Source: Promethearchaeia archaeon
Lineage (GTDB): Archaea; Asgardarchaeota; Lokiarchaeia; Sigyniarchaeales; SOKP01
Length of the DNA: 64,000 nt
Assembly (NCBI GenBank): GCA_029856145.1
Contig: JAHQWK010000026.1
Location: 27,628 to 91,627, forward strand
Reading direction: 5' to 3'
This document shows, piece by piece, positions 35,228 through 42,248 of the stretch (positions are counted from its first letter, which is position 1; every line of letters starts with the position of its first letter). The translations under genes were made by a program, and so were the position numbers. The notes under the pieces are model-generated. The model was given only the letters and a program-made list of their open reading frames with translations. It was not told where the DNA came from and made no database searches.

Positions 35228-38122
35228 ATGATTATTAATAAACGCAAAATAAAATCGATGAAAAATTCTCATATAGGAAATCTATTAAGTCAATATGGAG
35301 AAAATGTTAAGGGGATCTTAGCTGTTTTAGTTTATAAGAGGAGAGAATCGGCTCTTATAGAAGAAATTATAAATCCTCATATTGATGAGCCCCAAGTTCA
35401 TGTAAATTATAGTTTTATTAATGAATTAATTAAGAATCTTAAAAATGAATTTGGAGATGATAAAGACTTCCTGATAATTAGAGAACTATCCAGAAAAAAA
35501 GTGGTTTCATGTTCACTAGGGTTCAATTACATTCTAATAACAATAGCATCGAAAAAAACTTCTGATATCGAATTAAAAATATATTCCACTCACATTGCTG
35601 ATGAAATTGAGCGGTTAGAGGAAGAGACAGAACTAGAAAGTCTTAGTTTGAAGATCCCTGGTATTATAAAAGTATTTTCAAAAATAAAAAACGCTAAAAT
35701 TTCTACAAATAAACTCTCTTTAAAGGTTATAGTTCTTGGAGATTACCAAGTGGGTAAGACATCATTAATTAATGCATTCACTGATAAAAAATTTAAAGTC
35801 AGTTGGAATCCTACTGTCGGTTTTAATGTATACAAAAAGATTTTAAATATTGATGATACTGTTGTAATGAATTTAGCAATATGGGATACTGGAGGTTTTT
35901 CAAGCCAAATTTCTCCAACAAAAGAAAAGATTTTCAATTTCGCTGATGCTGCAATTATTGTTGTAGATAAAACACATCAAAATATTTTAAAAAGTATATT
36001 AAAATGGTATAATGAAATTAAAAACTCTTTAAATCAAGAAATACCAATTTTTTTAGCAATAACTAAGAATGATCTTAATGTAGAAGAGGGTCATTTAGAT
36101 TTAAAAAAAATTGAAGATTTTACAACAAATTATCAAATTGAGTATTTTTTAGTTTCAGCTAAAAATAGAGAGAATATGGATGAATTATTTTTTGAAATAA
36201 TTTATAAGATTATCAGTTTAAGAACAGAACAAAATTCTTATGGAGTATTTGAAGAAATTGATAAATATAAAGGTAATTATTTAACCCCCATAGAGATCAA
36301 TGCTTTGAAAGATTTAGAACACCTAATAATAGAAAGCTTAAATATTCAGGGTGGATACTTACAACAAATAGGAAGAAAAGTGGAAGAAAATGGAATCCCT
36401 GTAATTTATGAAATTGATCAAGCTTCATTTGGTGTTAAAATAGAAGATGGTAATGTTATTGGGTTAGGTTTATTCAATTGTTATTTAAAAACGCTACCTG
36501 AATCAATTTTTTCATTCAAATTCCTTAAAAAATTAAATTTGCGTTGTAATCAACTAATACAATTACCTGAGGTGATTCTGAGATTAGAATCTCTTGAATG
36601 GCTAGATCTTGCTTTAACAGATTTAAAAACTCTTTCGGAATCTATTGGAAATCTAAAGAAATTACGATTTTTGTATCTTGAAAATAATTCTTTAATAACT
36701 TTACCGAGTTCGATTGGAAATCTTGAATTTCTTCAAAATTTACATCTAGAAAACAATCCGATAAAATCTCTTCCAAATGAAATGAGTAATTTGCGATCCT
36801 TAGAGAAATTATGGTTAGAAGCACCAACTTATTTTTATAAAGGAGCATTAGAAGAATTACCTGAAGAATTTGGAGATCTTCCTTTCCTTCAAGTATTAGA
36901 TTTAAGTTCATGTGAAATAAAATATCTTCCCAATTCTTTTGGGAATCTTAAATCACTCAGGATTTTAGATCTATCAAATAATAAATTAGAATCCCTTCCA
37001 GATACATTTGGGAATTTAAAGATGTTAGAAATTTTAAACATAGGAAATAATAGGTTAAAGTTTCTCCCAGATTCGATAGGAGACCTTCCAAACTTAAAAC
37101 AAATATACGTATCCAAAAATCCATTACGAAAAAAAGCTTCTGAAAAATTTAAAGCCTTAGCATTGAAATCAAAAGGCTTGAAATATAAGAGATTGATAAA
37201 ACTTTCAAATATTTGCAAACAAGAAGAAGGAGTACAAAAAATTGAGAAAAATGGAATAAGCAAAAGAAAAACCGGAAATATCTTAAAACCATTGACTTAT
37301 GCTAGTACTGTGGCATTTTTAGGATTATTAACCTTTTTTTCATTTAAAATTAATTCTCAGACGCTTGATATTACGATATGGTCGCTGTTTGCTTTGGCAT
37401 TTTTTATAAATTTCTTGATTGGTACCTGTATTATTGCTAGTATATCAAGCTATTTTAAAGTTTCATCAATAGTTTTTACTCAAAAAATTATTAAAATCTT
37501 TGATATACTTGTAATTCTCTATTTTATTTGGGCTATACGTGCAATGATTAGAATATTTTTATCAATTGAGTTAATTCCCTCAGTAAATTTCTTATTTGAA
37601 TTCTCTGTTCCACAATGGATGCTAGACTTCTTAGTTAATCTAGGTTATAACGAAAGTTTGACGTTCTTAGAAAACATGGATATCTTTTTTGGACATTTCT
37701 ATTTAAAGATTTTCAGTATTGCGCTTGTTTTTTGGGCATTATATCGAAATGGATTTGGTCATATAAGAAAAACTATATTTGATGAAAAAGCAAATAAAAA
37801 TCTATGGATATTTCTAATTATTGGATTATTTGGAGCTTTATCTCTGGCAATTATGAATTATAGCAATTTAGCACCATTTTTAGGTATTGGATATAATATT
37901 GGAGTCATTATTGGTTCATCTCTTTTTGTTTGGGAGATCAATAAAGTTAAAAAAATGTTTTTTTATTATTATCTTTTGTTAATATTAGGTGGAATTGTTT
38001 TAATTTGGATTATTTCTTATTGGAACATTCTCTATTCATTGATAATAAGTGTTATTTTGATTTTCTTATTTTTTATACTTAGAACATTGCAACATAAAAA
38101 AATTAAATATTATCTGTACTGA
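35228..38122 (+). CDS. Rab/Ras-like small GTPase - LRR - polytopic membrane fusion protein
   Basis: G1 GDYQVGKT, G2 PTVG, G3 WDTGG, G4 TKND, G5 SAK; about 9 LRRs (LxxLxLxxNxLxxLPxxIG); about 8 C-terminal TM helices. Confidence 0.9.
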   Translation: MIINKRKIKSMKNSHIGNLLSQYGENVKGILAVLVYKRRESALIEEIINPHIDEPQVHVNYSFINELIKNLKNEFGDDKDFLIIRELSRKKVVSCSLGFNYILITIASKKTSDIELKIYSTHIADEIERLEEETELESLSLKIPGIIKVFSKIKNAKISTNKLSLKVIVLGDYQVGKTSLINAFTDKKFKVSWNPTVGFNVYKKILNIDDTVVMNLAIWDTGGFSSQISPTKEKIFNFADAAIIVVDKTHQNILKSILKWYNEIKNSLNQEIPIFLAITKNDLNVEEGHLDLKKIEDFTTNYQIEYFLVSAKNRENMDELFFEIIYKIISLRTEQNSYGVFEEIDKYKGNYLTPIEINALKDLEHLIIESLNIQGGYLQQIGRKVEENGIPVIYEIDQASFGVKIEDGNVIGLGLFNCYLKTLPESIFSFKFLKKLNLRCNQLIQLPEVILRLESLEWLDLALTDLKTLSESIGNLKKLRFLYLENNSLITLPSSIGNLEFLQNLHLENNPIKSLPNEMSNLRSLEKLWLEAPTYFYKGALEELPEEFGDLPFLQVLDLSSCEIKYLPNSFGNLKSLRILDLSNNKLESLPDTFGNLKMLEILNIGNNRLKFLPDSIGDLPNLKQIYVSKNPLRKKASEKFKALALKSKGLKYKRLIKLSNICKQEEGVQKIEKNGISKRKTGNILKPLTYASTVAFLGLLTFFSFKINSQTLDITIWSLFALAFFINFLIGTCIIASISSYFKVSSIVFTQKIIKIFDILVILYFIWAIRAMIRIFLSIELIPSVNFLFEFSVPQWMLDFLVNLGYNESLTFLENMDIFFGHFYLKIFSIALVFWALYRNGFGHIRKTIFDEKANKNLWIFLIIGLFGALSLAIMNYSNLAPFLGIGYNIGVIIGSSLFVWEINKVKKMFFYYYLLLILGGIVLIWIISYWNILYSLIISVILIFLFFILRTLQHKKIKYYLY

Positions 38123-40457: not shown

Positions 40458-40835
40458 TTGAATAAAATGATTTTCCATACATTTGAAGAAGTTATGTGGT
40501 TTTTAGTCTTTTACCTCATAGTTCTGTTAGTAATGGCAATTTTCTTGAAACTTGCTTTGGGTTTCTTTAGTAAAGCGAGGAATACTAATTTTGGCAATGT
40601 TTTTTTAACGGCATTCTTAATTACTGTAACTTTTGCTTTAGTTTTTTTGTTTTTAGGAGGTTTGGTCGCTTGGTTGGTTGCTTTCATCATAGCATGGTTA
40701 CTTATTTGTGTCAGCCATAATGTAGGATTTTTAAGTGCAATTGTTATAACTGTTATAGCTTTTCTATTATATGTTCTTGTTGTTATCTTACTTAGTGCCT
40801 TATTGCATGTAACAATTAATATATGGCTATTCTAA
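40458..40835 (+). CDS. 4-TM membrane protein
   Basis: Four hydrophobic segments. Confidence 0.7.
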   Translation: MNKMIFHTFEEVMWFLVFYLIVLLVMAIFLKLALGFFSKARNTNFGNVFLTAFLITVTFALVFLFLGGLVAWLVAFIIAWLLICVSHNVGFLSAIVITVIAFLLYVLVVILLSALLHVTINIWLF

Positions 40836-40966
40836 ATCTCTTCTTTTCTTTTTTTATCTTATGAGTGAAGCCTTTGATGAAAAAATCAATTTTGGAAGAT
40901 CCGACATAAAAATTATATGAATCTTTTTTATCGACAAAAATATATAATAATCCCTTAATAGTGTGA

Positions 40967-40974
40967 TTTAAATA
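40967..40974 (+). promoter_or_regulatory. TATA box for the putative ncRNA
   Basis: TTTAAATA about 23 nt upstream of the first stem (40997). Confidence 0.45.
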
Positions 40975-40996
40975 TGAATCCTTCAAAGTATATATT

Positions 40997-41343
40997 GTTC
41001 ATTCCTAACGGTTTGAACGTCGAGAAGAGGTATTGTTACCTCAATGCATTGGCACCGTAAGGTAATCAGTAGCGATATGAAAAGAGATTATGTGTAAAAG
41101 CATAATTCGAACTAAAATATAGGCCATTAGGTTTATATTCGGTGTTCGATCTGGCTAGTTCGCAAGAATTAGTAAGGTTATCAAACGATAACACTATTCA
41201 AAGAATAAGAAATTATTTTATGTATGGTATTTCTCTTCATGACGTAAATTGATTCAATGTTTTGTAAATTTTTCCACGAAAGTGAAAAAAAAATAATACC
41301 GTTTGCATGCGAAAACCTTCAGGTATTCATTTGCAACTTCTCG
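40997..41343 (+). ncRNA. Large structured non-coding RNA of unknown class
   Basis: No ORF; nested stems closed by CGAGAAG/CTTCTCG; GNRA hairpins ACC-GTAA-GGT, CTAGTTC-GCAA-GAATTAG, CAC-GAAA-GTG; see findings. Confidence 0.7.
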
Positions 41344-41502
41344 TCCCTTCTTTCTTAATAACTTTTAAATTCAAACTTAGTTTTTGTGAAAGATTCACTA
41401 AATAAAATTAAAAAAAAATCAGCCTTTTTCTTTCTTTAGTAGCTTTAAAGAAAATATATATTTCTTAAGTAAGTATGTAAAGAAAAAATTTAAAACTAGA
41501 AC

Positions 41503-41694
41503 TCAGAATACTATATTTTTACTTCTCCATAATTTTACAAATTTTCTGAAGTCTTCAACAGAGATTCCTAAGTCATTATGTTCTTTCTTAGTCTTCTTCT
41601 TTTTTTTGATATGTGTCGGTTTGGATTTTACACTTAATTCCCAATCATAATAAGAATCTGGACTAGTCACAAGAAGAAGATTGAAACTATTCAA
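41503..41694 (-). pseudogene. Short ORF or gene remnant
   Basis: 63-aa ORF with weak TTG start; no recognisable domain. Confidence 0.3.
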
Positions 41695-41768: not shown

Positions 41769-42248
41769 CTATTCGATCTCAATTCCACAACTGGGACATA
41801 TTTTAGCACTTTCTTCTATCTGTTTTCCACAATAAGAGCAATATTTAATGTTAAGTCCCTGAATCACATTAGGGTCCATAATTTTTTCCTGTTTTGAGGT
41901 TTTTCCATAAGTGTTTAAGAGTGAAAATAAATGAGAAAAAAGACCATTATACCAAGATTGTTTTAATTTTTCAACTCTAAATATATTTCGAGCAAGTGGT
42001 GTCGCTTCAACTCTAATTAATGTTTGGTTTCCTTCCAATGTATAAAAATTTATTAGAATTCTCTTTTTCCAATTTGGATCATGACCGGTGTTAGTCATCA
42101 TTGTTCCTTGTTTCGCCTTAATAAATATAGGTGGTGTTGATGTTTTAATTTTTGCTTTATATTGACCATTTAACCATTGTATTGTTAGATCAAATGCCTT
42201 ATGAGGATCTATTTGAACTTTTTCCTCATAAATTACATTTACTTTCAT
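41769..42248 (-). CDS. Protein with C-terminal zinc ribbon
   Basis: YCSYCG...KICPSCG. Confidence 0.8.
   Translation of the reverse strand: MKVNVIYEEKVQIDPHKAFDLTIQWLNGQYKAKIKTSTPPIFIKAKQGTMMTNTGHDPNWKKRILINFYTLEGNQTLIRVEATPLARNIFRVEKLKQSWYNGLFSHLFSLLNTYGKTSKQEKIMDPNVIQGLNIKYCSYCGKQIEESAKICPSCGIEIE

Follow-up and report, generated by a model that had tools for sequence, protein, structure and literature searches.

A lineage-restricted class of large, modular structured RNA in Lokiarchaeia

What does the gap without open reading frames (ORFs) at positions 40967–41360 of this 64,000-nt stretch of DNA (the window) encode? The gap lies between a 125-aa membrane-protein gene upstream (40458–40835, +) and two convergent genes downstream (41503–41694 and 41769–42248, −). 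An initial annotation, made from the letters alone, read it as an independently transcribed large RNA of ribozyme-like complexity, perhaps an undescribed Asgard class, and all the motifs that it quoted are present where it placed them. Our analysis leaves little doubt that the gap holds the stand-alone gene of a structured noncoding RNA (ncRNA) from an undescribed family, although the ribozyme-like character did not hold up.

A stand-alone gene with its own promoter

The + strand of the ncRNA folds with an energy of −103.4 kcal/mol (z −5.9 vs shuffles), far from chance and as highly structured as had been claimed; the same shuffle test gave z −4.2 for the − strand. Ranked by GC-corrected energy among the genome's 2,316 intergenic windows of 300 nt, the locus comes fourth, outranked only by the signal recognition particle (SRP) RNA and two 16S windows. 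The gene is single-copy in its source genome (G000). Across homologs, UUCG and GNRA tetraloops number 215 in the sense and 24 in the antisense direction, bearing out the earlier assignment to the + strand. The 5′ end was placed 30 nt past the first T of the TATA box and the 3′ end in a pyrimidine tract that is likely an archaeal U-rich terminator. The downstream gene is convergent to the ncRNA in 42/56 loci, the window included, and no conserved ORF was seen inside the ncRNA across members; together these observations argue against a leader or an mRNA. Further upstream in the window (35228–38122, +), a 964-aa protein appears by eye to be a eukaryote-like fusion of a roadblock/longin-like N-terminus, a small Rab-like GTPase, leucine-rich repeats and a multi-pass membrane C-terminus.

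Table 1 Features of the ncRNA locus (window coordinates).
Feature	Position	Strand	Evidence or remark
Upstream box 1, CGAC + A-tract, 65 bp before TATA (candidate transcription-factor site)	40901–40912	+	58/84 members
Upstream box 2, repeats box 1 directly at a spacing of 30 bp (~three helical turns)	40931–40940	+	58/84 members
Promoter-proximal element ending TTAATAG (candidate BRE region or third site)	40945–40961	+	TTAA.AG invariant in alignment A2
TATA box TTTAAATA	40967–40974	+	near-invariant; fixed distance to RNA start in all members
ncRNA, L type, ~355 nt	40997–41352	+	fold z −5.9; RNA-library contigs
H0, 5′ hairpin, 0/1/2 copies in homologs	40997–41018	+	93% paired vs 79% null, 0/300
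P1, closing helix 41021–27/41337–43, GAGAAG/CUUCUY invariant	41021–41343	+	member alignments
P2, 41029–37/41292–300, 9 bp, missed by the initial annotation	41029–41300	+	93% vs 75% null, 0/300
P3, 41041–51/41255–65, variable-domain stalk	41041–41265	+	91% vs 78%, 0/300; 5 two-sided changes
Small GUAA hairpin	41054–41063	+	comparison with C-type members
P5/P6 stalk and five-hairpin 'star'	41064–41254	+	helix tests; module recurrence
Star hairpins Pa; Pb	41086–107; 41108–148	+	Pa, Pb2 0/300
Module hairpins c (GCAA); d (AAAC); e (GAAA)	41154–173; 41177–192; 41193–228	+	Pc 0/300; Pd, Pe1 1/300; Pe3 3/300
P7 hairpin; GAAA in the loop, which varies among homologs	41269–41289	+	member alignments
P8, 3′ hairpin; loop houses extra units in trimeric members	41303–41336	+	member comparison
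Pyrimidine-rich tail, CCUU conserved	41344–41356	+	RNA-library contigs of three studies stop at 41342–41348

The promoter is as distinctive as the RNA. CGAC stands at exactly −65 and −35 from the TATA box in 58/84 members, and the layout TTAATAG-N5-TATA is near-invariant. No other site in the genome has this double-box promoter (score 79 vs −4 for the next), and a search for the double-box pattern over 150 genomes gave 36 matches, 33 of them at the promoter of this RNA. Two of the other three lie in coding DNA and one precedes a small regulator-like gene. The boxes, which are not transcribed, are thus conserved and travel with the ncRNA, lending indirect support to the idea that a dedicated factor may bind the two CGAC boxes; the promoter would then define a candidate Asgard transcription-factor site. 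Elsewhere in the source genome, 12 intergenic sites have a single CGAC box, without a clear pattern, and none was found at the promoters of neighbouring genes. A shared regulon was considered and rejected, as this is the one gene of the source genome with the double box. The double box before the regulator-like gene (L365; G055:C1:5440109–5440146, −) belongs to another family and precedes a small protein that is ribbon-helix-helix-like by eye; it may be a chance match or possibly a lead to the type of factor.

RNA libraries point to transcription in sediments. Fourteen sequencing runs on record as RNA contain the ncRNA stretch; the runs were selected because they contain it. Contigs of the runs used, which exclude some with small word shares, were aligned to a 6-kb region. 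In three studies the contigs cover the ncRNA only and not the neighbouring genes, with short stray pieces in the flanks. One contig spans 41013–41343 (100% identity, depth 69), another 41162–41348 (100% identity), and the third study contains many variants from relatives within 41014–41342 at depths up to 531. A contig from a fourth run, flagged as probably DNA, covers 40999–41408 at 100% identity. Transcript ends had been foreseen near 40997 and 41350; the contigs indeed end at 41342–41348, although contigs cannot prove strand, ends or expression level. They support, indirectly, the view that marine sediments contain the ncRNA as a discrete and abundant transcript, the high abundance being suggested by contig depth. 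The conserved promoter, the U-rich end, the covarying fold and contigs confined to the RNA collectively support the earlier view that it is independently transcribed. Several RNA contigs start at 41013–41020, near the H0/P1 boundary. In addition, a 388-nt contig (run X11, record 11; depth 28) joins 41212 back to 41019 (2 × 194 nt); a circle, a duplicated allele and a library artefact are all candidate explanations.

A fixed frame carrying a variable number of modules

The ncRNA is built on a frame in which the hairpin H0 is followed by P1, which closes a three-way junction with P2 and P8; P2 closes another with P3 and P7, and P3 leads into a variable domain. Helices were tested against a null in which parsimony substitutions were re-dealt along the tree in 300 runs. 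H0, P2, P3, Pa, Pb2 and Pc did better than 300/300 null runs, and Pd and Pe better than nearly all. Compensatory variants of P2 occur in all architecture types. An alignment of 52 units, fitted to the model, has 88.6% of its cells paired (37–42% in slid controls) and two-sided change in 77/88 pairs (48 in shuffles). An all-against-all single-pair G-test with a parsimony null gave no significant pair (best E 2.5), at the low power afforded by 35 similar sequences.

Most helices proposed in the initial annotation are kept by compensatory change. Tree-aware support was obtained for its 5′ hairpin GTTCA/TGAAC, which actually has 9 bp and a 4-nt UAAC loop, for the helix GCATTG/CAATGT, which extends to 11 bp, and for the GATTATG, long TCGAAC, GCAA and AAAC hairpins. 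The closing helix CGAGAAG/CTTCTCG (P1) is retained and near-invariant, and hence uninformative for covariation; its invariance is partly a product of the search patterns used to collect members. For other elements the pairing stands while the covariation test says less: ATGAA/TTCAT draws weak support (36/300 null runs as good), the core pairs of AATCAGT/ATTGATT are kept as counted without a null, and ACC-GTAA-GGT is kept and variable (121/300 as good). The 3′ hairpins with GAAA and TTCA loops occur in almost all members, with weaker or no tree-aware support. Three hairpins were given up. GAGGTA/TACCTC was matched by 47/300 null runs, and its 5′ strand pairs with 41292–41300 to form P2 instead. 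TATTC-AAA-GAATA (79/300 null runs as good) and AGAAAT/ATTTCT (third pair broken in 33/35 homologs) are replaced by a hairpin with a GAAA loop at 41193–41228.

The proposed long-range pseudoknot AACGGT/ACCGTT also fails. Three of its six pairs need bases already held in the stem of the 5′ hairpin and in P2, and two of the remaining three are broken in 10/35 and 11/35 homologs. It did score above its null (0.82 vs 0.55), but against competing helices and these broken pairs. Furthermore, two homologs (L015 and L059) have no H0 at all; H0 is doubled in the L016 type. Among L-type members, no pseudoknot of at least 3 bp at 80% or more was found at unpaired positions, nor was a conserved kissing loop.

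Conservation is concentrated in stems. The bases invariant across the family are paired ones, found in hairpin d and on either side of the two basal junctions. Most loops interchange between UUCG, GNRA and others (those of S-type members are mostly UUCG), and junction linkers are constant in neither length nor sequence. The window RNA has four GNRA loops, and L-type members keep unpaired A-rich loops at 90–100%.

One fixed frame, P1-P2-P3, carries all versions of the RNA, about 240–745 nt overall. The members fall into type S (26 members, 241–314 nt), type L (39 members, about 330–385 nt, the window RNA included), type C (5 members, 664–669 nt) and type D (14 members, 731–745 nt). All types contain the three-hairpin module c-d-e: S and L have one copy, D three and C four. 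Type C consists of an S domain, two further modules and an L domain, all inside one P3. The L form may have arisen from C by loss of the segment between two UUAAUC repeats, with ACC-GNRA-GGU left as a stump; the GUAA hairpin of the window RNA is probably such a remnant of the first S-type arm after an internal deletion. Type D comprises whole-unit trimers: a single promoter precedes three homologous units, and both the 13-member consensus fold and L081 place the additional units inside the P8 loop. In the L081 trimer, the P8 strand of the first unit prefers the last unit as its pairing partner (−12.2 vs −1.9 kcal/mol), as does its P1 strand (−8.0 vs −5.7 kcal/mol); this first-to-last pairing is explained by simple insertion into the P8 loop. 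The frame tree implies at least 8 changes of architecture; the variable domain is exchangeable as a whole, and the module has been multiplied by three independent routes. In the P8 loop of three g14 L-type members (L061, L065 and L067), a short internal duplication forms two small hairpins, a second sign of insertion tolerance there.

Distribution, genomic context and comparison with known RNAs

The family comprises 84 distinct homologs, all from Lokiarchaeia genomes or sediment metagenomes; metagenomes contributed 39 further loci, and the genome-derived members span three genera (g1, g14 and g17) of one family. BLAST detected the ncRNA in 17/24 genus relatives at 73–90% identity. A sequence-only model used for the L-type searches (R1) and a structured model built from S-type members only (R2) agree on its presence in 56–57/130 family genomes (34/51 in g1, 21/42 in g14 and 1/6 in g17), and 31/39 genus genomes of at least 90% completeness carry it. 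The S-type-only covariance model matches the window RNA at E 4e-15, and units 2 and 3 of the trimers, both left out of the model, at E 1e-6 to 1e-17. Neither R1 nor R2 found a credible homolog in any other family or among 150 genomes from across the phylum. When 185,579 species genomes were scanned with a promoter-plus-P1 pattern, 52 matches came up; they are Asgard or archaeal metagenome-assembled genomes (MAGs), mostly Promethearchaeota, except for one chance match in Bacteroidetes; the latter was dismissed as a homolog because it does not fold (z +1.0). Weak matches in G186, G031, G090, G092:C142 and G120:C113 were likewise discarded, since they look like coding DNA. Searches of viral contigs, phages and plasmids returned nothing.

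Presence is patchy within the family. Contiguous empty sites are seen at the polB locus described below and, in G004, G089 and G097, at the locus that the ncRNA occupies in the window. Absence is genuine in some lineages, and several near-complete genomes lack the RNA. Genomes carry one or two copies, with paralogs or tandem copies in G120, G138, G018 and G133. In L074 (4150–4600; G012:C21:18787–19082), a degenerate second copy without a recognisable promoter lies 2.4 kb downstream of an intact gene. Descent of a eukaryotic RNA from the ncRNA is unlikely, because it is confined to three genera, is dispensable and was not found in the single-contig genomes of other families searched.

No neighbour gene is constant across the ncRNA loci. 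The commonest upstream neighbour is an operon of a small gene and a family B polymerase (polB, PF00136), at 26 loci in two genera, and this polB-adjacent position is probably the ancestral site. Structured RNAs of 200–400 nt, often beside one polymerase gene, include omega-RNA/HEARO, retron msr-msd and DRT ncRNAs; the ncRNA differs from these in that its neighbour is PolB and not a reverse transcriptase (RT), TnpB or IscB, and the link is non-obligatory. We also rejected a role as PolB cofactor: linkage is not obligatory, polB is near-universal (126/150 genomes, irrespective of the ncRNA), in this genome it lies on another contig than the ncRNA, and some polB-locus sites lack the RNA. Directly behind the ncRNA, a small ORF of ~55–63 aa (…SYYDWEL…; 41503–41694, −) has conserved counterparts in G004, G089 and G097; it is found again just after polB in genus g15 (L360). 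Given these occurrences, the ORF probably encodes a genuine small protein, which may link the window's locus to the polB locus.

The patchy distribution with clean empty sites, the several genomic contexts and the 26 polB-adjoining loci could also be seen as marks of a selfish or neutral element, such as a MITE/REP-like palindrome, a mobile-element relic or the RNA of a polB-linked system. We consider this highly improbable. With one or two copies per genome, the loci show no terminal inverted repeats, target duplications or neighbouring transposase or RT genes; the tetraloop strand bias and G-U-tolerant covariation mark the element as RNA, promoter boxes that are not transcribed are conserved, and the polymerase gene is near-universal and on another contig here. 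A mobile-element RNA or MITE was specifically rejected given the single copy in the source genome and the lack of a linked transposase, RT, nuclease or terminal repeats.

Comparison with Rfam 15 gave no match over the ncRNA at E ≤ 10 and none at gathering in the window; the S, C, D and g14-L members had none at E ≤ 5. No description of this RNA was found in a literature search with subscription journals mostly outside its coverage. We regard this lineage-restricted class of large structured RNA as real and undescribed. The earlier suggestion of an undescribed Asgard class stands in that neither Rfam nor a paper matched and all named genomes are Promethearchaeota/Asgard, but the class is narrower, with three genera only.

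The previously noted absence of RNase P, SRP, group II domain V and riboswitch signatures agrees with motif counts across the family. The ncRNA resembles archaeal RNase P RNA (RF00373) in its ~300–350 nt, closing helix, nested three-way junctions and hairpin before the 3′ strand, but it has no P4 pseudoknot, and CR-I and CR-V motifs occur in 0/84 members. That it might be the RNase P RNA missing from the source genome was rejected, as relatives carry both RNAs: a canonical RNase P RNA lies elsewhere in 20/24 genus genomes, including 14 with this ncRNA. RF00373 was not found in the source genome (a 97%-complete assembly), G010 or G015, which in the source genome is probably an assembly gap. G017 has two tandem RNase P RNA matches (C66:15325–15981, partly in L030; 130 and 91 bits), an apparent duplication. 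Archaeal SRP RNA (RF01857) is alike in size, closing helix and own TATA promoter; its helix-8 SRP54 motif is found in 0/84 ncRNA members, and the source genome encodes its SRP RNA on a different contig (G000:C23:12880–13199).

Signatures of group I and group II introns, hammerhead and RNase P occur in 0–10/84 members, the loose intron and ribozyme patterns in 5–10/84. An intron or self-cleaving ribozyme was rejected, the RNA being intergenic with its own promoter and no Rfam match. More broadly, we regard a ribozyme or catalytic RNP as very unlikely. Size and multi-junction complexity would suit one, as would the clustering of invariant bases at the two basal junctions and the invariance of some unpaired bases in the L type. 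However, L, S, C and D members have no Rfam match, known signatures are limited to the counts above, junction linkers vary, and the ncRNA neither lies within nor borders a mobile or spliced element. The description as ribozyme-like thus lapses, with no surviving pseudoknot, no conserved ribozyme signature, invariant bases in helices and loops that mostly swap freely.

Regulatory and tRNA-related RNAs were compared as well. A riboswitch or T-box leader was rejected, with the convergent downstream genes and UGGNACC in 19/84 members; T-box resemblances (UGGNACC, CCGUU and GGUGUGA) are not conserved or fall inside stems. A box C/D or H/ACA guide RNA was rejected too: box C is present in 4/84 members, and the internal loops inspected contain no K-turn. 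A tRNA or tmRNA was dismissed (no ARAGORN call; CCA end in 0/84). Elsewhere in the source genome, ARAGORN calls a tRNA-SeC at C8:~12915, and apparent intron-containing tRNA genes that it missed lie at C3:125878–126300. The ncRNA could in principle bind a small molecule or ion, or act in trans on the ribosome or tRNA as a stress or dormancy RNA switched on by a CGAC-box factor; the dedicated upstream regulatory layout and the high apparent abundance in sediments would fit. Such a role seems quite unlikely to us, given no tRNA-like end or K-turn, UGGNACC at the frequency just stated, the negative ARAGORN result and a variable domain that is swappable wholesale.

A putative binding platform

The combination of invariant paired bases, exchangeable loops and a multiplied module favours a binding platform over a single active site, and we tentatively propose that the ncRNA works as a binding platform, scaffold or sponge. 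It would be a folded, trans-acting and multivalent platform whose partner, most likely a protein, would read the conserved helices beside the junctions (GAGAAG/CUUCUY, GUA/UAC and UCAAU/AUUGA) and also the UAUC/GAUA stem of hairpin d. Added modules, fused units or a duplicated gene would give a lineage more binding capacity, and the RNA would be useful to its host, not essential. Gene neighbourhoods and polB co-occurrence identified no binding partner. Repetition of the module could also be neutral expansion, and the conserved unpaired A-rich loops of the L type also fit RNA–RNA tertiary packing.

The sponge RNAs CsrB, CsrC and RsmZ act in trans, have repeated modules in variable number and a regulated promoter, and occur as paralogs in some genomes. 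The ncRNA is alike in its repeated modules of variable number, its own promoter and its paralogs in some genomes. It differs in having no repeated single-stranded GGA loop motif, its repeats being whole stem modules; its conservation lies in stems within a nested multi-junction fold, and no CsrA-type partner is known.

An RNA-only quaternary assembly like those of ROOL, GOLLD and OLE, with GNRA/A-minor docking and the D trimer as a covalently fused oligomer, is an unlikely alternative, yet one with points in its favour. ROOL has been described as a large and abundant RNA that is not essential and has no linked protein,(PMC12286853) a profile that the ncRNA shares, with abundance suggested by contig depth. 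The four GNRA loops and conserved unpaired As of the window RNA and the clade of fused three-unit genes also fit, and the ncRNA resembles all three RNAs in its large covarying multi-junction fold, stand-alone gene and GNRA loops. Unlike the ROOL and GOLLD cages, which rely on kissing loops or pseudoknots,(PMC12286853) it has no conserved element of either kind in the L type. Moreover, simple P8-loop insertion explains the pairing of the trimers (L081 and the 13-member consensus), the S-type loops are mostly UUCG, and the ncRNA was not found on phages. It further differs from ROOL, GOLLD and OLE in having no sequence or Rfam match, in being archaeal and chromosomal with no link to phages or tRNA islands, and in its variable module number and double-box promoter. 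There is a small chance that the ncRNA is the first archaeal 'ornate' RNA machine, abundant and separately regulated, whose modules assemble into an ordered oligomer or multivalent particle; if so, the natural three- and four-module alleles would be covalently fused versions that reveal the stoichiometry of the oligomer.

Whether as a binding platform or otherwise, the family is a clean case of a large RNA gaining domains. Its members form a natural series in which one frame carries 1, 3 or 4 modules and the 5′ hairpin may be present or not; together with the fused trimers and the genomes with empty sites, this makes structure and binding directly testable with in-vitro transcripts.

Three other AT-rich intergenic stretches of the source genome also fold well (C23:7904–8200, C13:104269–104690 and C7:192900–193430). 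They have no similarity to the ncRNA family and are candidates for further RNAs or inverted repeats.
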